A model generated the notes under the pieces. It did not search any database. It worked only from the letters and a program-made list of their open reading frames with translations, and was not told where the DNA came from. A stretch of DNA of 64,000 bases from an uncultured delta proteobacterium (GTDB lineage Bacteria > Desulfobacterota > WTBG01 > CAIYCZ01), in contig CAWDOY010000009.1 in NCBI GenBank assembly GCA_963803975.1, forward strand, positions 64,001 to 128,000. The letters are read 5' to 3'. The position numbers and the translations under genes are program-made. Positions within the stretch are counted from its first letter, which is position 1. Every line of letters begins with the position of its first letter. Positions 1,672-52,943 of the stretch are shown one piece after another.

Positions 1672-1913
1672 TGTTTCTACCTCCCAGAATATAGATATAA
1701 ACGCAAGAGCGCATACTTATTATTATACACATTTTCTCTGCATGTCAATTGGCATGTAAGCAGAATGAGCGGTTACGGGAGCATCTCTGCCGGCCATTGA
1801 CACACATGCGGAAAACGCAGCAGAATATAACAAAACAAATTATTGACACGTATTTTTAGTTATGTTACTTGTGAATTCAGTCACTATATAGTATTAATAT
1901 TATATTATAAATC

Positions 1914-2000
1914 TGGTCTTCCGAGCCGCTCACGCATAAGTAGGCGGCCGAAAAGGCTGAGGACAAAAACTTCAGCCCGCCGTGTTTGCGAAGGAAGCCT
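1914..2000 (+). ncRNA. Moco/Wco (molybdenum/tungsten cofactor) riboswitch-like RNA
   Basis: TCCGAGC...TAAG...GAAA...CCGTGTTTGCGAAGGAAG resembles the Moco RNA motif consensus as recalled. Helices cttcc/ggaag, gccgc/gcggc and ggctgagg/cttcagcc. Lies upstream of an AOR operon and overlaps a terminator. Confidence 0.65.
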
Positions 2001-2048
2001 GAAGAGTACAGCTGCATTGTGCAGCTTACTTTTCAGGCTTTTTCTTTT
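1996..2048 (+). terminator. Intrinsic terminator in the AOR leader (expression platform)
   Basis: agcctgaagagta-cagctgc...gcagct-tacttttcaggct followed by ttttctttt. Confidence 0.8.
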
Positions 2049-2181
2049 GGTACTTGGGGGATATTTAAAAAGTTACATGTGAAAGGAGGTGCAGTTTTAT
2101 TGTTTTTGTGGGAAGCCTGCGGGAAGCGGGCTGCAGTAGTTAACCAACATCTGTTACAGTTTTTGAAAAGGGAGAATAATT

Positions 2182-2682
2182 ATGAGTAACGGAAAAGCCC
2201 TGGTATACAACCAGGAAAAATGTACTGGATGCAGAAGCTGCGTCGTCGGCTGTTCTCTCTATCATGATGGCGAGTGCGGGAAAGTGGTTTCCCGGGTTGC
2301 CGTCGTGAGGAACGAGAGATTCGGAGAATCCTTTGTCGTCGGCTGCGACATGTGCACTGACGCGCCCTGCGCAGCAGTGTGCCCAACCGGCGCATGCGCC
2401 ATGGACACGGTCGCAGGCATCACCAAAATAAATGCCGATAAGTGCATCGGCTGCAAGGAATGCGCAATGGCCTGCCCCTTTGGTGTAATCAATATGCACT
2501 ATAAAACCGGAAAGGCTTTCAAGTGTGACCTCTGTGAAGGCCGTGATGCCGGTCCCGTTTGTGCTGACTGGTGCCCGAGCGGCGCAATAACCTATACAAG
2601 CCCCAATATTGCGTTCAAGGCCAAGCGCCGGGTAAAGCTTATGGAACGCTTAGAAGCTGCGAAAGCTGGAGAGGAGGGTTAA
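2182..2682 (+). CDS. 4Fe-4S dicluster ferredoxin-like subunit of AOR
   Basis: CTGCRSC, CDMC..PCAAVCP, CIGCKECAMACP and CDLC..CADWCP motifs; GGAG RBS. Confidence 0.92.
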   Translation: MSNGKALVYNQEKCTGCRSCVVGCSLYHDGECGKVVSRVAVVRNERFGESFVVGCDMCTDAPCAAVCPTGACAMDTVAGITKINADKCIGCKECAMACPFGVINMHYKTGKAFKCDLCEGRDAGPVCADWCPSGAITYTSPNIAFKAKRRVKLMERLEAAKAGEEG

Positions 2683-2686
2683 AACT

Positions 2687-4651
2687 ATGTATGGATGGGC
2701 TGGACAAAGACTACGCGTAGACCTTTCAACGGGAACAATAACCAAAGAGCCTCTCTCCTATGAGTATCGCCGCAAATGGATAGGCGGACGGGGCTTTAAC
2801 TCTGACATCATTTATAATGAAGTACCGGCGAACCTGGATCCGTTTGATCCTAAAGCGCGGGTGTGCTTTGGCGTGGGCCCGGTCAGCGGCACCGCTGCTC
2901 CTTCAACAGGACGCGTGACCGTTACCTGCAAGAGCCCGCTCACCGGCGGATTCGGTGACTCCAACATGGGCGGTCACTGGGGCGCAGAGCTGAAATATGC
3001 CGGCTATGATCAGATTGTCGTTCAGGGCCGGGCAAAACATCCGGTCTATATCTGGGTCGATGATGACAAGGTCGAGATCCGTGATGCACGCCACCTGTGG
3101 GGCAAATTCCCCCGCGAGGCAGACCAGATGATAAAAGAAGAGCTGGGCGACGAGGACATTCACATTGTGCTCATCGGGCCGGCCGGCGAAAACATGGTGC
3201 GGTTTGCCTGCACCTTTAACGATGTGTGGCGCGCTGCAGGAAGAACCGGACACGGCGGCGTCATCGGCTCCAAGAACCTGAAGGGCATTGCGGTCCGTGG
3301 TTCCGGCACCGTTAAAATTGCCAATCCCAAAGCCATGATGGATGTCTGCAACCGGCTGAGACAGACTTTTAAGCCCGACCCCATGAAGATCGGTCTCTAT
3401 GAGTTCGGCAGCCTGTGCCTCATTAACGTTGCCAACCGCGACGGCTGGTTCCCCTGGAGAAATTTTCAGGGCGGCGCACACCCGCTGGCAAACAACATGT
3501 CAGGCGAGACCCATGCCAAGACCGTGCTCAAGCACCGTGAAGGCTGCTTTGCCTGCCCGATCTGCTGCGGCCGATTCACCCACATTAAAGAAGGCAAATG
3601 GGCCGGTGAAGAGTTCGGCGGACCTGAATATGAACATGCAGTTCCGACCGGACCGCGCGTTGGCATAATTGAAGATGCCAATGATATCTGGCACAATGCC
3701 CGCTTAACCAACGACTACGGCATGGACGGTATCGAGACCGGCGGTGTAATATCAGCGGCAATGGAATGGTATGAAAAGGGCCTCATCACCACCAAAGAGA
3801 CCGGCGGACTGGAGCTTGAGTGGGGCAACGCGGAAGTCGTGGATAAGCTTATCCCCATGATTGCAACACGCAAGGGCTTCGGCGCAATCCTCGCCGAAGG
3901 CGCTGACCGGGCTTCTGACAAACTGGGACTCGGTGATAAAGGACACTATTATACCCTCACCACCCGCGGCATGACGCTGCCGGGCGATGACCCGCGCGGC
4001 CTTGGTTTCGGCTACGGGCTCTCTTTTGCAATGGGCACCCGCGGCGGCTGCGACCATCTCCGGTCACTGTGCTGCCTCGAGCTCTCCGGCGCCCTTTATC
4101 CGGGCCTCAACACCAAGATTCTCGGTGATGAGCGGCCCAATAAGCCGGTCACCACGGTAGGAAAACCCTACATGGTCTTCTATGAAGAGAACCAGAAAGC
4201 GACCACAGATTGTCTGCAGGTCTGCTGCTTCACCACCCACTGGTCATATGCGGTTCTCACGCCTGACCAGGTGGAATACCTGAATGCCGTTACCGGGCTT
4301 GACTTCACCGAGGAAGAGTTCCAGGAAATCGGCGAGCGCGTCTACAACCTGGAACGCGCCTACTGGGCACGCCAGATGTCCGGCGCCCGGGAAGACGTTG
4401 TGCCGGAGCGGTTTACCACTGAGCCGATGCCCCAGGGCGTTGACTATCAGACCAATGTCGGCGTTGTGTTCCCCTTAAGCGAAATGCTGAAAAAGTACTA
4501 CAAGTATCGTGAGTATGAGCCCGGAACAGGATTCCCCGGCGAGCGGAAGCTGAAACAGCTCGGCCTTGACTACGTGGCAAAGGATCTTGCCCCGCTGCGC
4601 AGCAAGTACCTGTCTGAGTCTGAGAAGAAAAAGAAAAAATACTACTATTAA
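2687..4651 (+). CDS. Aldehyde:ferredoxin oxidoreductase family (tungsten-type AOR/WOR) catalytic subunit
   Basis: KSPLTGG..DSNMGG, IGPAGEN, RAAGRTG.G...GSKNLK, CFACPICC, GPEYE, GMDGIE, RGGCDHLR. Confidence 0.95.
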   Translation: MYGWAGQRLRVDLSTGTITKEPLSYEYRRKWIGGRGFNSDIIYNEVPANLDPFDPKARVCFGVGPVSGTAAPSTGRVTVTCKSPLTGGFGDSNMGGHWGAELKYAGYDQIVVQGRAKHPVYIWVDDDKVEIRDARHLWGKFPREADQMIKEELGDEDIHIVLIGPAGENMVRFACTFNDVWRAAGRTGHGGVIGSKNLKGIAVRGSGTVKIANPKAMMDVCNRLRQTFKPDPMKIGLYEFGSLCLINVANRDGWFPWRNFQGGAHPLANNMSGETHAKTVLKHREGCFACPICCGRFTHIKEGKWAGEEFGGPEYEHAVPTGPRVGIIEDANDIWHNARLTNDYGMDGIETGGVISAAMEWYEKGLITTKETGGLELEWGNAEVVDKLIPMIATRKGFGAILAEGADRASDKLGLGDKGHYYTLTTRGMTLPGDDPRGLGFGYGLSFAMGTRGGCDHLRSLCCLELSGALYPGLNTKILGDERPNKPVTTVGKPYMVFYEENQKATTDCLQVCCFTTHWSYAVLTPDQVEYLNAVTGLDFTEEEFQEIGERVYNLERAYWARQMSGAREDVVPERFTTEPMPQGVDYQTNVGVVFPLSEMLKKYYKYREYEPGTGFPGERKLKQLGLDYVAKDLAPLRSKYLSESEKKKKKYYY

Positions 4652-4683
4652 TCAGCATTGAGTTGAAGGGAGGTCATGAGAAT

Positions 4684-4926
4684 ATGGCTATTATGACAAA
4701 AGCACAGGCCAAAAATTTCGCCGAGATGGATGACTTCATGCTCGAGCTTTGCGACTTTTTAAAAAGCAAGAGCGTCATCGACGCTACCACCCACCGCAGC
4801 ATCCTGCTGAAAGGCTTTTCCCGAATGGTTGACTGCCTGCAGGAAAAGAAGGTGATTAGCGCCAGGGAAGCCAAAGAGGCTATGGATAAAGGGTTTACCT
4901 CGCTGGTATACGCTTTAGCGAAATAG
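4684..4926 (+). CDS. Small hypothetical protein with an internal two-fold repeat
   Basis: GGAGGT RBS; co-oriented directly after AOR and before a terminator. Confidence 0.7.
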   Translation: MAIMTKAQAKNFAEMDDFMLELCDFLKSKSVIDATTHRSILLKGFSRMVDCLQEKKVISAREAKEAMDKGFTSLVYALAK

Positions 4927-4949
4927 CGCTCCGTTTCGGTAACACGAAC

Positions 4950-5010
4950 AAAAAAAGGCCTGGAACCATTTGTTTACCATATCAGTAACAAAGGTTTCAG
5001 GCCTTTTTTT
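4950..5010. terminator. Intrinsic terminator hairpin
   Basis: aaaaaaaggcctggaacc...ggtttcaggccttttttt. Confidence 0.85.
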
Positions 5011-5033
5011 ATCTTGAAAATCTGCAAGAACTT

Positions 5034-5127
5034 GGTAAAAAAGGTAAAGAGGTAGAAAGGTTAAGAGGTGAAAAGGTGTATTGTTTTTTTATCTGTTAGC
5101 CTCTTGACCTCTTAGCCTTTTTGCCTA
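5034..5127. repeat. Inverted array of degenerate 8-nt repeats (AGGTNAAG-type) upstream of batC
   Basis: aggtaaag/aggtagaa/aggttaag/aggtgaaa, then ttagcctc/ttgacctc/ttagcctt/tttgccta. Confidence 0.85.
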
Positions 5128-5140
5128 TTATTATTAAAGT

Positions 5141-6042
5141 ATGTTTATGCGAAGAGTAATTTTTCTTATTGCCTTGTTTATATATGCTCTGGGGGATGCT
5201 GCGTACTGCGCTTCCCTCTACGATACCGTGAAAAAGGGCAACCGGCTCTACCAGGATGGAAAATTTGACGAGGCGCTCAAGACCTACGTCGATGGCCAGA
5301 TAGAGCATGCTGATGACCTTGCCTTAAAATATAATATAGCCGCCTCCCACTATAAAACAAAAAACTACGACGAGGCAGTGAAAGGGTATCTCGATGTTGC
5401 CGCATCTGCCAAAGATGCAGGGCTGCAGGAAAAGTCTCTCTATAACTGCGGCAATGCCCTGTACCAGCAGGGAAAACTTGAGGAATCCATAGAATATTAC
5501 AAAAAAGCTCTCGGGCTTAATCCTGATGACCAGGACGCCAAGCACAATCTTGAGTTCGTGCAGGAAGAGTTGAAGAAGCGCAAGAGCGAAGCTAAGAAGA
5601 CAGAGCAAAAACAGCAGCAGGAACAACAACAGCAAAAGCAGGACGAAAATAAACAGCAGCAAAACCAGCAGAACGATCAGCAGGGCCAGCAGCAGGAGCA
5701 GAATAACCAGCAGCAACAGGCCCAACAGCAAAGGGAGAAAAAAAGGAGCAAGAGAAAGCAGCTCAGCAGAAACAGCAGCAGGAACAGAAAGAAGAGCAAG
5801 CCCGGGCCGGCGAACAGAAGCCCGAAGAACAAAAGCAGGCGCAGGGCCAGCTGGGCACCGCAGATAAAAAAGAAGGCGAAAAACAAGACGAAGCTCAGGC
5901 AGTGCCGCAGCAGGCACGGCAGATGACCAAAGAAGAAGCTCAGCAGTTGCTCAACAGCATTGAAGAAAACCGGGGCAAGTTTGCCAAAAAGAAAGCGCAG
6001 GAAGAAGCTGCCGGGCAGTACCGGCCGGAAAAGGATTGGTAG
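5141..6042 (+). CDS. batC: BatC-like TPR protein with Gln-rich linker (frameshift near 5740, likely sequencing error)
   Basis: TPRs (YNIAA, YNCGNALY, DAKHNLE), poly-Q linker; second frame ends MTKEEAQQLLNSIEE...EKDW. Confidence 0.75.
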
Positions 6043-6049
6043 TTAAAGA

Positions 6050-6175
6050 AAGGCAAAAGGCACAAAGGCAACAGGCACAAAGTTAATAGTAAAATAATTG
6101 AGAGCAGGCATCGAGGCACAAAGGCATAAGGCACAGAGCGACAAAGGCGCAGGCAAAGATGCAGAAGGCACAAAG
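6050..6175 (+). repeat. Left arm: AGGCACAA-type degenerate tandem repeats
   Basis: About 10 aggca(c/t/a)aa units running up to the ATG at 6176. Confidence 0.9.
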
Positions 6176-6535
6176 ATGAAAACGTTTCGTGATCTTATAG
6201 TTTGGCAAAAAGCCATGCAACTGGTAACGGACACCTATCAGATAACCCTTAATTTTCCTAAAGAGGAGCTTTATGGACTCACCTCTCAAATAAGGCGCTG
6301 CTCCATATCGATTCCCAGTAATATGGCTGAAGGATATGGAAGAAATTCAACAGAGGACTATCTGCGCTTTCTGAAAATATCCCGGGGTTCACTGTATGAA
6401 TTGCAGACCCAGATAGAAATCGCCTTCAATTTACACTATATAAAAAAAGAAGATTTTGATCGAATGAATGAAGCAGGCAGAGAAATTGAGCGCATGGTAA
6501 GCAGCCTGATCATTAAAATCAACCAGGCAAAATAA
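6176..6535 (+). CDS. Four helix bundle protein (23S rRNA IVP-like, PF05635/TIGR02436 type)
   Basis: MKTFRDLIVWQKAM...FPKEELYGLTSQIRRCSISIPSNMAEGYGR...FLKISRGSLYELQTQ is the family signature; 119 aa. Confidence 0.93.
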   Translation: MKTFRDLIVWQKAMQLVTDTYQITLNFPKEELYGLTSQIRRCSISIPSNMAEGYGRNSTEDYLRFLKISRGSLYELQTQIEIAFNLHYIKKEDFDRMNEAGREIERMVSSLIIKINQAK

Positions 6536-6658
6536 CTCTGTGCCTCTGTGCCTGCCACGAGCGGTGAGCCACTCGGCCTTGAGCTCGTGTCCGAAAGGCG
6601 CGTCGAACCGTAGAGGGACCTTATGCTTTGTGCCTTCTGCCTTATGCCTTTGTGCCTC
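6536..6658 (-). repeat. Right arm: inverted TTGTGCCT-type repeats with an embedded REP-like insert
   Basis: 6638-6658 is the exact reverse complement of 6113-6133, and 6626-6640 of 6161-6175. A cggtgagc...gtcgaaccg insert lies at about 6562-6610. Confidence 0.9.
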
Positions 6659-6669
6659 ATAATAAACTT

Positions 6670-8448
6670 ATGAAACAACTATCCGCCTTACTTATCACCA
6701 TTTTTCTTCTGCTCTACGCGGCGCCGGCAGTAATAGCCGCCGAGACTTCCCTCTCCATCTCGCTGGACCGGGACACAGCGACCCTGGCAGACTCTATAAA
6801 TCTTACCATCTCCGTTGAAGGGGCAAGCGGCGAGCCGCAGCTGCCGTCCTCCCCGGCGTTTGAAACAGTACGCCAGGGCAGCTCTTCCCGGATGCAGATA
6901 ATAAACGGGAAGATATCTTCCAGCGTTGATTACAGCTATGCCCTCTACCCGAAGAAGGAAGGGGTTTTCACCATCGGCCCCGCAACCCTTGATAACAACG
7001 GATCCATGCTCACCAGCAACACGGTCAGCATTACCATTCAAAAGGCGGCAGTGAGCGAAAAGCGGAACGAGGATGTGTTTGTGACTGCGGAAGTGGACAA
7101 TCAAAATCCCTATGTGAATGAGCAGATCATCTATACCTTCAAGTTCTATTACCGGGGGAGAGTTGCCAATGCCCGCATGACAGAGTCTCCGTCGTTTGAA
7201 GGGTTCATAGCCGAGCTGTTGGGAAAGGAGCGCGAGTATCAGACCACTATAAATGGCCGGCAGTTTATGGTGACGGAAATAAAGCAGGCGCTGTTCCCCA
7301 TAAAGCCCGGACCCCTGACCATCTCTCCCTCAGCGCTGCAGTGCAGCGTGGCAGTGAGAAGACAGCGCCGGGGCGGGACTTTTAACGACCCGTTCTTTGA
7401 TGATTCTTTCTTCGGCTTTTCCCAGACCGAGTCGAAGATGCTGCGCACCTCACCTCTGGAAGTAACGGTCAGGCCTTTGCCTGAAGAGGGGAAACCGCGG
7501 GATTTTGCCAACCTCGTCGGAGAGTTCAAGGCTGCCGCGGAGATAAGCAAAAAGAAGCTGGAGGCGGGAGAGTCTGCTACCCTCACCCTCACGCTCACCG
7601 GGCAGGGCAACCTGAAAAATTCCCCGGCTCTCAGACTTGAAAATCTGGACGGCTTCAAGGTCTATGATGACAAGCCATCATTCGAGCCGCAGGTTGCGGA
7701 TGGACGCATCGGCGGTAAACTGATCATAAAAAAAGCGCTGGTGCCCTTGAAGGAGGGAACGCTCCAGGTTCCGCCGGTTGCAGTTGCCTATTTTAATCCC
7801 CACTCAGGCGCTTATGAAACAACGCGGACTGAGGCGCAGATTCTGGAAGTTTTACCGGCAAAGGAGAAGGAAAAGCTCCCCATTGCTGAAGCTGAAAAGC
7901 AAGCTGCCGGAAAACAGGAGATTAAAATACTGGGGAAGGATATACTGCCCATTCACACCGCACTGAACGTGCTGTCACCCGAGCCGCTTAATCCTCTCTC
8001 ATGGCCGGCAGCAGCTCTGCTCTTTGTTCCTCTGCTGGGCTTCTCTGCCTGCCTTCTGGTTAAACAGCGCAGGCTTCGATACAGCGACGGCACCGGCCTG
8101 GCCCGCGGCAAAAACGCTCACAAGAATTTCAGTAAAAAACTGACGCTGGTGAAAAAGCTGCATCATCATGACGAGGAAGCCTTTTACCGTAATGCTTCAA
8201 AAGCTTTAAAAGATTTTATCGGCGATAAGCTGAATATTGTCGGCAGCGCTTTGACCGCGGCGGAAATTGAAAGAAGGCTTTCAGCGCTGAACCTTGGAGA
8301 GTCCTGTATCCGGGAATTGAAAAGAATAATAGAGCTGCTGGAGGCAGGACAGTTTGCTTTTCAAAAATATACGCCTGAAGAACGCGAAGCTATGGTTGAC
8401 GCCATGAAGAAAGCGGCCCGGGAGATCGACCGAAAGATTAAACAGTAG
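6670..8448 (+). CDS. batD: BatD family protein
   Basis: Signal peptide, SSSRMQIING, YVNEQIIYT, VRPLP, VGEF, YFNP..GAYE, then a C-terminal TM segment; context between batC and batE. Confidence 0.85.
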   Translation: MKQLSALLITIFLLLYAAPAVIAAETSLSISLDRDTATLADSINLTISVEGASGEPQLPSSPAFETVRQGSSSRMQIINGKISSSVDYSYALYPKKEGVFTIGPATLDNNGSMLTSNTVSITIQKAAVSEKRNEDVFVTAEVDNQNPYVNEQIIYTFKFYYRGRVANARMTESPSFEGFIAELLGKEREYQTTINGRQFMVTEIKQALFPIKPGPLTISPSALQCSVAVRRQRRGGTFNDPFFDDSFFGFSQTESKMLRTSPLEVTVRPLPEEGKPRDFANLVGEFKAAAEISKKKLEAGESATLTLTLTGQGNLKNSPALRLENLDGFKVYDDKPSFEPQVADGRIGGKLIIKKALVPLKEGTLQVPPVAVAYFNPHSGAYETTRTEAQILEVLPAKEKEKLPIAEAEKQAAGKQEIKILGKDILPIHTALNVLSPEPLNPLSWPAAALLFVPLLGFSACLLVKQRRLRYSDGTGLARGKNAHKNFSKKLTLVKKLHHHDEEAFYRNASKALKDFIGDKLNIVGSALTAAEIERRLSALNLGESCIRELKRIIELLEAGQFAFQKYTPEEREAMVDAMKKAAREIDRKIKQ

Positions 8449-8537
8449 GCAAAGAGGTAAAGGGAAGAGGTGAAAAGGTTGATAATTCTCAAACGGTAAC
8501 CTTTTAGCCTTTTGGCCTCTTAACCTATTCACCTTCT
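8447..8537. repeat. Inverted array of 8-nt repeats (AGGTNAAA-type) at the batD/batE junction
   Basis: aggcaaag/aggtaaag/aggtgaaa/aggttga, then taaccttt/tagccttt/tggcctct/taacctat/tcaccttc. Confidence 0.85.
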
Positions 8538-8551
8538 CATTATATCCAACT

Positions 8552-9340
8552 ATGAAAAAGCTGCTATCTTTAATTTTATTAACTGCACTGGCAGTCGGCG
8601 TGCTTTACGCGGCAGCGCGTGCCCAGGACAAAAACAGTGAAGAGGCCGACACCTCGCATATGTTTCTGCAGGCTACCCAGGCATACAAGGACGGCGCTTT
8701 TGACAAGGCAGCCGCTCTTTATGAAAAGCTCCTGGCACAGGGCATTGTCAATGGCAGCATGTTCTACAATCTTGGCAACGCGTACCTGAAAGCCGGAAAG
8801 ATCGGCAAGGCGCTGGTTAACTACCGGCGCGCCGATATTTTTATGCCCCGCAATGAGGACCTGCAGGCAAACATCCAGTACACCCTGCAGCTCACAACCG
8901 ATAAAATTGAAGGCCGCGAGCCGTACGCGTATGCAAAAAACTTCTGCTTCTGGTACTCAAAGCTCAACGTCAGGGAGCTGGCCATCCTGTTTCTGATTTT
9001 CAATCTTATACTGTGGGGACTCGCCATAGCGCGGCTCTTTTATAGCGGGGAATATCTCTGGCTTGCTCTCTCTGTCTCCATAGCCTGCGCCATTCTGCTC
9101 GGCATATCCTCCGGTATTAAGCTGTATTCATTTTATTACAGCCCCACCGGTGTTGTCACGGCAAAGGAGATCACGGTCCGGTCCGGGGGCAGCCGTAATG
9201 ACACCGCCCTCTTCCAGCTCCATGAGGGAGCAGAGTTTGACTGGCTGGATGAAAGCAGCGGCTGGGTTAAAATCAAGCTGCGCGATGGGAAAAAAGGCTG
9301 GGTACAGAAAGATACCGTGGATAAGGTTGCCGTGGAGTGA
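8552..9340 (+). CDS. batE: BatE-like TPR/TM/SH3b protein
   Basis: YNLGNAY TPR, two TM helices, C-terminal VRSG..LFQLHEG..WVKI..GKKGWV. Confidence 0.85.
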   Translation: MKKLLSLILLTALAVGVLYAAARAQDKNSEEADTSHMFLQATQAYKDGAFDKAAALYEKLLAQGIVNGSMFYNLGNAYLKAGKIGKALVNYRRADIFMPRNEDLQANIQYTLQLTTDKIEGREPYAYAKNFCFWYSKLNVRELAILFLIFNLILWGLAIARLFYSGEYLWLALSVSIACAILLGISSGIKLYSFYYSPTGVVTAKEITVRSGGSRNDTALFQLHEGAEFDWLDESSGWVKIKLRDGKKGWVQKDTVDKVAVE

Positions 9341-9393
9341 GCGCTTTTCGGGCAGTAAACATCTCAGGATGACGGCAGAAGAAATGGCACTGC

Positions 9394-9435
9394 TTAAAAA
9401 GGGGTAACGCGATGGAAAGCGTTACCCCTTTTTAA
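9394..9435. terminator. Bidirectional terminator
   Basis: aaaaaggggtaacgc...gcgttaccccttttt between convergent genes. Confidence 0.85.
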
Positions 9436-9479
9436 TTAAATATTAACGTATCTGCAAGCCTTACCGGCTATGAGGTTTT

Positions 9480-10191
9480 TTAGTCATCCTGACGGTCCTC
9501 GCCCCAGATACCGAACAAAAGGTAGTCGCAATACGTTACGTTGACGGCAGTGAACACGTAGAAAAGAAGTGCCAGACCACGCATGATGGTGCGGTCACTT
9601 TCATATTTTGCAATAAGAGACGAATCCGGTACAGCTTCTCCCTCCTCAGCGCAGATATAGTATGTCTGGTATATGGCAAATGATGTGAATAAAGAAGCCA
9701 GCCAGAAGTCGAGATACATTAACACGCAATCATATCTTCCGGGAAATAAACCAGATAGTCCACAAAATAGATAAACGATACCAGCGAAACAGCCCAGAAT
9801 TCAAGCGATGCAAATGTCCAGGGGGTTAAACAGCCGGGGGCAACCGGATCAGTGACAGCCGCCAGCCTGATCAAATTGTCTTTGATCATTTGCTTAATTT
9901 CATCTGCAGGCTTGATGCCTTTGGCCCTTTCAAGAAGCAGGGAGAACGCTTCGTCATTAGTGCTCCATCAAGGCCAGAAGCTCCAGTGCCGCGCGCTGCA
10001 CAGCCTGCGCATCAGGCGCCTGATTATTTTTCAATGCAGGCAGCTGCAAACGGAGAAATTGCAGCAAGTTTCTCCACAAGCTCTTTCTCATCCAGGACCG
10101 GCATTTTATTTCCCTGTGCAGCCAGGGCCGTGCTGAAGGGTATGAGTACCATTAATAATGAAACATAGGTGGCGATGCATTTTTTAAACAT
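9480..10191 (-). CDS. Hypothetical exported/membrane protein, frameshifted
   Basis: Starts MFKKCIATYVSLLMVLIPFSTALAAQ (signal peptide); the frame breaks, and a hydrophobic C-terminal ORF occupies 9480-9725. Confidence 0.35.
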
Positions 10192-51492: not shown

Positions 51493-51517
51493 AGGGTTTC
51501 TCTTACAGAAGATAACC

Positions 51518-51666
51518 AGGCTGTTGAAAAACACCCATCTGCTGCGTTGCGCTCATCCTTCGTCATTGCGACGTACGGTAATGTACGACTCATTCCTCAG
51601 GATTTCGCGCGCCTTGCATCTGAATGTTTTTGACCAGCCTGGGGAAAACTACCTTTTCAACAACCG
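51518..51666 (-). mobile_element. MITE-like family A, copy 2
   Basis: Reverse complement of 35339-35486 with few differences. Confidence 0.85.
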
Positions 51667-51667
51667 T

Positions 51668-52943
51668 TTAAGGAGTCAGAGAGTTAAGGAGTTGCAGGAG
51701 TTTAAGCATTATTAACTCCGTCACTCCGGAACTCCCGAACTCTGCAACTGCAATTATATGTGTCTTTTCTGCTTTAAACTTTGCTATTTCATCACTGCCG
51801 AAGCCAAGCTCCTTCAATACTTCTTCATTGTGCTGGCCGAGCGTGGGTGGAGCAGCCGTTACCTCAGCCGGTGTTTTGGAAAACTTGATCGGGGCGCCGG
51901 TTACCTTGATTTTGCCGCACTTGGGGTGATCAATCTCGACCAGCATATCCCGGGCAATAACCTGCGGATCGGCAAAAATCCGGTCAATGGTGTAAATAGG
52001 CCCGCAGGGAACGCCGGCCTTGTCCAGGATGTCAAGCCACTGATCCATGGTTTTGGTGGCGATCACCGGGTTGATAATTTCAACTACCTCTTTGCGGTTT
52101 TTCACCCGCTGGGCGTTGGTGGCAAACTTCGGGTCACTGACAATGTTCTGCAGGCCGGTTGCCTCGCAGAATTTTTGCCAGAGGTTATCATTGCCCACGG
52201 CAATATTGATATAGGCGTCTTGTGGCCTTGAAGGCCTGATAGGGAACAATGAGCGGATGGCCGGAGCCGATTTTTTCCGGCACATCGCCTGCTGTCAGGT
52301 ACCGGCCAGCCTGATAGGTAAGCCAGGAAACCTGTCCGTCAAGCATTGAGGCATCAACCATCTGGCCTTCGCCGGTGCGCTGCCGGTGATACAGTGCGGT
52401 GAGAATACCGATGGCGGCAAACATGCCGGTTGCAATGTCGGTAACCGCCACGCCGACTTTTATTGGCGGCCCGCCCGGCTCGCCGGTGATCCCCATGATG
52501 CCGCCCATTCCCTGCAGCACCTGGTCAAAACCGGGGCGCTCGCGGTAGGGGCCGGTCTGGCCGAACCCGGAGATGGAGCAGTAGATGATTTTCGGGTTTA
52601 TCTTCTTGACGCTCTCATAGTCAAGGCCGAGCCGGTCCATGGCACCGGGGCGGTTGGTTTCAAGAAGCACGTCCGCCTTTTCAAGCATCTTGTTAATAAT
52701 GGATTTGGCATCCTTGCTCTTCAGATTAAGGGAGATGCTCTTTTTGTTGCGGTTGACGCTTAAAAAATAAGCGCTCTCTCCTTCAACAAAGGGCGGGCCC
52801 CATGCCCGCGAGTCATCACCTGAGCCCGGTGGCTCTACCTTGATAACCTCAGCTCCCATATCAGCCAGGAGCATGGTGCAGTAAGGGCCTGCCAGTGCCC
52901 GTGAAAAATCAATTATTTTAATACCTTCCAGTGCGCGTGCCAT
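51668..52943 (-). CDS. CaiB/BaiF family III CoA-transferase (frameshift near 52225; true C-terminus probably near 51755)
   Basis: LAGPYC..LAD.GAEVIKVE, NRNKKS, SGFGQTGP, D.ATG, PP.LGQH. Confidence 0.92.
51671..51752. repeat. Inverted 8-nt repeat array (AGGAGTTN-type)
   Basis: aggagtca/gagagtta/aggagttg/aggagttt, then taactccg/tcactccg/gaactccc/gaactctg. Confidence 0.85.

Follow-up and report, generated by a model that had tools for sequence, protein, structure and literature searches.

A four-helix-bundle gene enclosed by inverted octamer arrays in a bat operon spacer: a candidate cassette without a mobility enzyme

Results

Genes and repeat arms of the batC/batD spacer

The DNA analyzed (the window) is a stretch of 64,000 nucleotides from contig CAWDOY010000009.1 of an uncultured delta proteobacterium. 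The original prediction, made from these letters alone, had placed a 119-amino acid four-helix-bundle gene at the batC/batD junction between inverted arrays of the word AGGCACAA, and its coordinates proved exact (Table 1). Both perfect reverse-complement matches named there were recovered, one of 21 nt (6113–6133 versus 6638–6658) and one of 15 nt (6161–6175 versus 6626–6640); in agreement with it, the interval 6043–6669 contains no transposase, integrase, reverse transcriptase or other mobility enzyme gene. The longest perfect inverted match obtained in 2000 base shuffles of both flanks was 12 nt, as compared with the 21 nt present. In total, the left arm comprises 10 AGGCA cores and the right arm 6 TGCCT cores, each arm being divided into two blocks, and the inner left block covers the putative ribosome-binding site of the four-helix-bundle gene.

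Table 1. Position of the genes and repeat features at and around the batC/batD spacer (numbering of the window).
Feature	Position	Strand	Evidence or remark
Gene-less inverted arm pair, AAGAGGT-type word	5037–5129		Precedes batC; G001 carries a replacement
batC-like TPR gene, upstream host gene	5141–6042	+	BatC-like TPR model match, below cut-off
Outer left arm, 4 AGGCA-core units	6051–6082	+	Begins 8 nt past the batC stop
Inner left arm, 6 AGGCA-core units	6104–6175	+	Reaches the ATG; spans the likely ribosome-binding site
Four-helix-bundle gene PF05635/TIGR02436, 119 aa, residues Y54, Y62, E105	6176–6535	+	HMM match, structure model
Proximal right arm, 2 inverted units	6536–6553	+	Immediately past the four-helix gene stop
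Nested palindromic mini-elements interrupting the right arm	6554–6619		Inner unit of ~30 nt at 6570–6599
Distal right arm, 4 inverted TGCCT cores	6620–6659	+	Ends ~10 nt short of the batD ATG
batD, downstream host gene	6670–8448	+	BatD model match
Gene-less inverted arm pair, AAGAGGT type	8451–8540		batD/batE spacer; other nested arms in G001 and G002

The neighboring genes match BatC-like TPR (below cut-off), BatD and TPR-SH3 (BatE-like) models. Arrays occur in three spacers of the bat operon, including that between batC and batD, and two gene-less arm pairs of the AAGAGGT type flank other bat genes. In the assembly, batC is frameshifted by one base missing near 5731–5741; because the related genome G001 and contigs of four sequencing runs have this base, its loss is either an assembly error or a private mutation.

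The right arm is interrupted by an insert of ~65 nt that is unrelated to the arms, is built of three nested palindromic layers and is a separate mini-element. TGAGC directly precedes its inner unit at this site and at 8 of the 12 further matches in the genome, and the insert is also found in G001 with substitutions. It may resemble the small dispersed repeats of cyanobacteria. Similar small hairpins often break up AGGCA arrays.

An Rfam scan of 4800–9500 yielded five weak matches, all far under their gathering scores, and no rRNA match; promoter and terminator counts stayed at chance level, and no tRNA or tmRNA was found in the window. At 51517–51665, directly before a gene-less GGAGTT arm pair (51668–51742), lies an element of ~150 nt, probably a MITE, with dozens of 91–95% identical copies in G001.

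The encoded four-helix-bundle protein

The open reading frame matched PF05635 (140.5 bits versus a cut-off of 33.8 bits, 2.8e-41) and TIGR02436 (134.7 versus 24 bits, 1.4e-39); the bAvd and Avd models remained under their cut-offs (28.7 versus 80 bits and 28.4 versus 40 bits). The predicted structure consists of four helices (pLDDT 96.8) and superimposes on Xcc0516 (2GSC) with a TM score of 0.93 and on Avd (4DWL) with a TM score of 0.80 at a sequence identity of 12–13%. The closest solved structure, 2GSC, has five chains, and by analogy the window protein likely forms a five-subunit ring; an oligomer prediction with four copies scored 0.26 (mark 0.42). The PF05635 family is termed uncharacterized in two reports (bioRxiv 2024.02.27.582315; PMC10053308).

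Inverted arrays and their words in the protein family

Inverted arrays around homologous genes, which the original prediction implied, proved to be strongly enriched. From 203 loci, 162 genes with full flanks were obtained, and the inverted alignment of the flanks beat 30 shuffles in 126 of them versus 17 of 177 control ORFs, taken as other ORFs of the same loci. Alignment scores of ≥18 were reached by 126 inverted, 19 direct and 6 cross-locus alignments.

Words were called from a larger set (333 loci, 254 genes with usable flanks, 212 words) that leans towards relatives of the window protein. Their period was 7, 8 or 9 nt in 162, 47 and 3 cases, respectively, and AG was present in 174; word phase was fixed by an AG-first rule. 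Removal of near-duplicates left 200 words, of which 184 were analyzed after dropping those not starting with RG. Each PF05635 subfamily has its own word of 7–8 nt, mostly containing AG. Words were alike at ≥4 of 5 variable positions in 3–4% of the pairs with 20–50% amino acid identity, in 31% at 60–70% identity and in 63% at 70–80%. Words resembling AGGCACAA recur in the clade of the window gene, in records assigned to Desulfobacterales, Bacteroidota, Verrucomicrobiota and Sumerlaeota, whereas four-fold sites of the genes in this clade are ~30% identical across phyla, near random (e.g. 7/29). The arms outlast synonymous sites, and the non-coding arms must therefore be constrained. Pairing and homogenization could do part of this, but recognition of the word by the protein would explain it more simply.

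Links between protein residues and word bases

Mutual information evaluated against tree-local permutations (z 4.1–4.8, family-wise thresholds 3.9–4.2) picked residues 54, 59, 62 and 63 for base +3, and residues 105 and 74 for the last bases of the word. On all branches of a FastTree tree, from which the tested columns had been removed, the link between Y62 and G at +3 was borne by 21.4 versus 1.5 out of 31 edge-disjoint contrasts (median p of 1e-5), the columns having been chosen from the same data. Likewise, G, A or N at position 105 went with T at −1 (11.1 versus 1.4 contrasts, p = 0.012, all branches). T59 and Y/F74 failed the contrast test as code positions. When supported branches only were used, 1–8 contrast pairs remained among those listed, a number insufficient for a test, and none of the associations was significant.

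A held-out set comprised 62 genes with flanks, 49 with a called word and 46 that entered the tests, for which p-values ignore kinship. Here, Y62 was again associated with G at +3 (5/7 versus 9/39, p = 0.020, uncorrected for kinship and with only seven Y62 genes), as was E or Q at position 105 with A at −1 (5/7 versus 8/39, p = 0.014, likewise uncorrected). C or S at position 54 accompanied C at +3 in 6/17 versus 0/29 genes (p = 0.0013), a rule added after the first 32 genes had been seen; Y54 was not replicated as a code position (p = 0.18). The window protein (Y62, E105) fits its 8-base word AGGCACAA. Xcc0516 also has Y at position 62; this would agree with G at +3, but the GGGAATC repeat at its gene can be read in more than one phase. 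The original prediction had suggested that the product might bind the periodic repeats, and the covariation of protein and repeat points to such binding. Thus, the protein likely recognizes its own word, whereas the exact residue-to-base code is provisional.

Presence, absence and replacement among related genomes

The gene is not a stable member of bat operons. In 41 related genomes, batD was located in 30, and a four-helix-bundle gene precedes it only in the genome studied here (G000) and in G001. A comparison of the junctions for empty alleles, which the original prediction had proposed, gave 22 of 26 resolved batC/batD junctions of ≤108 nt, the one in G003, a member of the same family, measuring ~20 nt; no PF05635 relic was detected at the other bat junctions (33 loci searched besides G000 and G001). 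In G002, the last inverted unit alone remains before batD, behind a foreign arm. The batC contig of G001 retains the outer left arm and then enters foreign arms, while its batD contig carries the gene, an arrangement that may represent two alleles or a nested insertion. In contigs of sediment strains, foreign arms begin after 6064 and after 6069, and one contig has a foreign right arm ahead of the surviving last unit and batD; the outer left arm (6051–6082) is retained in G001 and in strain contigs with differing interior. Strain contigs thus retain the outer repeat unit while the interior is replaced. The expectation that the unit is gained, lost and swapped was borne out by these alleles. 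The batC/batD junctions of G012 and G016 carry insertions of 416 and 437 nt; one contains a structured palindromic element, and the other contains inverted heptamer arrays around an interior without a PF05635 match.

Eight array-bearing spacers were compared with their counterparts in G001 (flanks 88–98% identical). Six differed wholly, one retained its arms with most of the ORF lost, and one (batC/batD) looks polymorphic; as the spacers were picked for holding a gene or an array, this outcome should not be read as a rate. Positions 1750–5041 of the window served as a partial control; they aligned unbroken with G001 at 95% through ordinary spacers, and the array spacer at 1256–1317 was retained as well. 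The alignment breaks at 5041–5209, 6082–6154 and 8449–8620. The replacement tracts stop at the nearest conserved sequence and take in the whole signal peptides of batC and batE; that the replaced blocks end at the mature sequences would be in keeping with recombination in which DNA of a diverged donor was exchanged at the closest conserved anchors on either side.

The starts of batC (5141–5209) and batE (8552–8620) encoding these signal peptides are wholly different in G001, and the mature parts are ~95–98% identical; the replaced blocks end at or near the predicted cleavage site, beside a swapped repeat spacer. The signal peptide of batD, which lies behind a retained arm, is nearly unchanged.

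No consistent directional gradient of co-conversion was seen around seven swapped sites. Within G000, the duplicated loci C33 and C19 have flanks that are 89–90% identical, different words and ORFs alike at 223 of 294 nt. Contigs also show repeat-mediated length changes, namely a 56-nt skip (6072–6129) and a 16-nt duplication. With regard to nested arm order, a strict genome scan gave one testable nest of two families, nesting being otherwise seen by eye. Neither a target-site duplication nor a fixed insertion point was identified among the empty alleles compared, which come from distant relatives or are occupied by other arms.

Discussion

The cassette and its proposed mode of replacement

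We favor, with a probability of roughly 0.55, the reading that gene and arms form a cassette that lacks a mobility enzyme and is present, absent or replaced among relatives; its protein, likely a ring, likely binds the cassette's own word of 7–8 bases, and host recombination is the likely means by which the unit moves. Each subunit interface would read one repeat unit, much as Avd reads RNA bases that are flipped out between its protomers. Residues near 54–63 would contact base +3, and residue 105 the base before AG. Bound to the purine-rich arm over its own ribosome site, the protein could autoregulate its gene, and it might also open or shield the hairpin. DNA of a diverged donor would take the place of whatever lies between the closest conserved flanking sequences, and its point of entry would often fall within an older hairpin; later, the ORF would be lost by decay or deletion, and the empty arms left behind might still serve resident proteins as binding sites. 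As a guess, spread may be favored by protection of hairpin DNA or mRNA from host nucleases.

A bolder version, to which we give somewhat less than even odds, would make the cassette a new class of enzyme-free selfish element, in which a programmable pentameric reader of nucleic acid with a residue-to-base code binds the heptamer or octamer arms of its own cassette, shields or opens their hairpin and in this way drives the replacement of older operon-spacer hairpins. At the same tentative level, its debris would be the inverted 7–8-nt arrays of Xanthomonas, cyanobacteria and many phyla, and rRNA intervening sequences (IVSs) and the Avd proteins of diversity-generating retroelements (DGRs) would be offshoots.

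Pairing of the arms and processing of the transcript

The original prediction had proposed that the arms pair on the bat transcript and loop out the ORF. In a more explicit form, which we regard as unlikely, the arms would exist for RNA processing, RNase III cutting the stem and releasing the ORF as in 23S rRNA IVSs. The region 6040–6672 folds with z = −5.1 against 20 shuffles, and ~50 arm-to-arm pairs are expected in total, the 21-bp helix having a mean pairing probability of 0.32; a nested register is equally stable (−193.3 versus −193.7 kcal/mol in slightly different windows), so the pairing register is not unique. An RNase III gene is present in the genome, RNase III cuts a Coxiella IVS that combines the same gene family with heptamers (PMC4990558), and by crude ORF calls both neighbors run in the same direction as the homologue in 85 of 112 resolved cases. 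Such co-orientation suggests the transcript as a substrate, as does the position of the arm right at the start codon, though neither is decisive.

Selection for an mRNA stem found no support. Mismatches of the G·U type on the sense strand were fewer than those of the A·C type (317 versus 408 in 171 loci; 426 versus 503 by unit), a slight excess of the latter that may be compositional, and duplex energies were equal on both strands (92 versus 91 loci). The suggested excision was not borne out either: no contig joined 6042 to 6670 in eight runs, two of them RNA runs with little or no cover of the four-helix ORF, and contigs cannot show RNA ends. Moreover, a cut without religation would split the operon mRNA, and processing of the transcript leaves the covariation of word and protein as well as the gene-less arm pairs unexplained.

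Gene-less arm pairs and the host genome

The genome contains 10 PF05635 matches, six of them over the cut-off. Eight copies were viewed by eye. Inverted arrays surround all six strong ones and the decayed copy at C19, and their word differs from copy to copy. The remaining one (G000:C14:111429–111641) is a longer four-helix-bundle gene with an inverted pair of GTGGAC-type arrays inside its reading frame. Of 450 neighboring array pairs, 62 were inverted (random rate 3.6%), and no gene lies within 39 inverted pairs, which have 37 distinct left arms. The genome thus holds a minimum of 37 gene-less arm pairs, far more than gene-filled ones. The purine arm comes first in 34 of the 39, and the same polarity was found in 80 of 90 two-orientation clusters of hand-defined word families.

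These gene-less pairs might instead form a host regulatory network, in which the proteins bind them in trans and tune the stability or translation of operon mRNAs, turnover being a by-product. This is about as improbable as release of an IVS from the transcript. In its favor, a resident gene has a matching word for 24 of the 37 empty pairs (a decayed gene in seven of these 24), ~40 further AGGCA doublets share one cognate gene, and 21 of 23 resolved empty pairs lie between co-directional genes (background 73%) and none between divergent ones, the other 14 being unresolved. Repeat sites are stable in Xanthomonas (PMC4692102). On the other hand, words at orthologous spacers were swapped between 95%-identical relatives, the neighboring genes are functionally unrelated, and decayed gene copies are common.

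Relation to known systems

In its architecture, the cassette corresponds to an IVS with an ORF, but one that resides in mRNA spacers. According to PMC4990558, the IVS of Coxiella burnetii has a 28-bp stem that is cut by RNase III, tandem heptamers (GACAGAT) just before the start codon of S23p, and an S23p that is probably not made in vivo. In this Coxiella IVS, as described there, and in the window, an ORF of the PF05635 family is looped between terminal inverted repeats. Unlike an IVS, the window cassette lies at the batC/batD mRNA spacer and not within a 16S or 23S rRNA gene; unlike that of Coxiella, it has an intact, conserved ORF and many gene-less siblings. The rRNA IVS looks like one special landing site of a wider cassette. 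In the literature covered, which took in neither most subscription journals nor bioRxiv supplements, no paper linked PF05635 genes to flanking arrays outside the Coxiella IVS.

Intergenic GGGAATC 7-mers of Xanthomonas form 70–75 convergent inverted pairs per genome and are also found in Nostoc (PMC4692102); an array of them overlaps the start of xcc0516, the gene whose product is 2GSC. There, these repeats are read as G-quadruplex candidates at conserved sites and such repeats are called poorly studied; the main text mentions neither S23 nor a helix bundle and links the repeats to no protein. Most words described here cannot form quadruplexes, and, unlike the GGGAATC repeats, their sites turn over. 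The same paper gives a higher conservation of Xanthomonas repeat sites between two species than of controls (90% versus ~70%), which argues against rapid swapping everywhere and against general mobility.

The four-helix fold is shared with DGR Avd, whose pentamer grips flipped-out RNA bases in inter-subunit crevices, with the same residues used repeatedly by the protomers (bioRxiv 2023.10.23.563531; 8UB7). Unlike a DGR, the window cassette has no reverse transcriptase, TR or VR, and its protein scores below the Avd cut-offs. A retro-mobile cassette, in which the ring, bound to its RNA arms, enlists a reverse transcriptase of the host that copies the unit into new spacers, is quite improbable: the fold belongs to a reverse transcriptase cofactor, and the genome encodes a reverse transcriptase domain at C50 that exceeds the cut-off and another, split, at C47, but none lies beside the cassette, precise ends were not found, and the replacement tracts, which extend into downstream signal peptides, fit DNA recombination. 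Least probable of all, nothing would recognize the words, the arrays arising by slippage, being homogenized by pairing and hitch-hiking with the gene; the repeat-mediated length changes and the non-significant contrasts on supported branches suit this, but the near-universal AG, the period of 7–8, the persistence of words beyond synonymous sites and the residue–base links replicated in held-out genes speak against it.

If the favored reading of a recombining cassette with a word-binding protein holds, it offers a testable ligand for a protein family that has solved structures and no known function and occurs in many phyla, often in several copies per genome. It would also provide a possible source for the over-represented intergenic heptamer repeats treated in PMC4692102, and rRNA IVSs that carry an ORF would become just one of the places where a general cassette can land. 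Should the code hold, a 119-residue ring with retargetable specificity might serve as an RNA- or ssDNA-binding tool. The batC/batD locus is a good example with polymorphic alleles.

Like REP/REPIN-RAYT systems and MITEs, the element has one gene-bearing form and many gene-less hairpin relatives in intergenic spacers; unlike these, it has no HUH or DDE transposase, and the arms in the window are periodic arrays and not one palindrome. The enclosed gene is PF05635 and not a Y1 HUH gene, of which eight matches occur elsewhere in the genome. Identity with an rRNA IVS, Avd or RAYT was rejected by location, score cut-offs and the enclosed gene, and the unit is probably not an IS. RAYT and GxxExxY genes were also rejected as mobilizers; their flanks are of other types, the exceptions being a single Y1 gene with short runs and a GxxExxY gene within an inverted repeat pair. 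The former (G000:C9:38831–39915) encodes a RAYT-like Y1 transposase of 337 amino acids and has short outward-facing 7-mer runs beside GGGGTC motifs. The latter (G000:C11:215–565, PD-(D/E)XK) lies inside its own inverted short-repeat arms, a parallel cassette with a nuclease fold.
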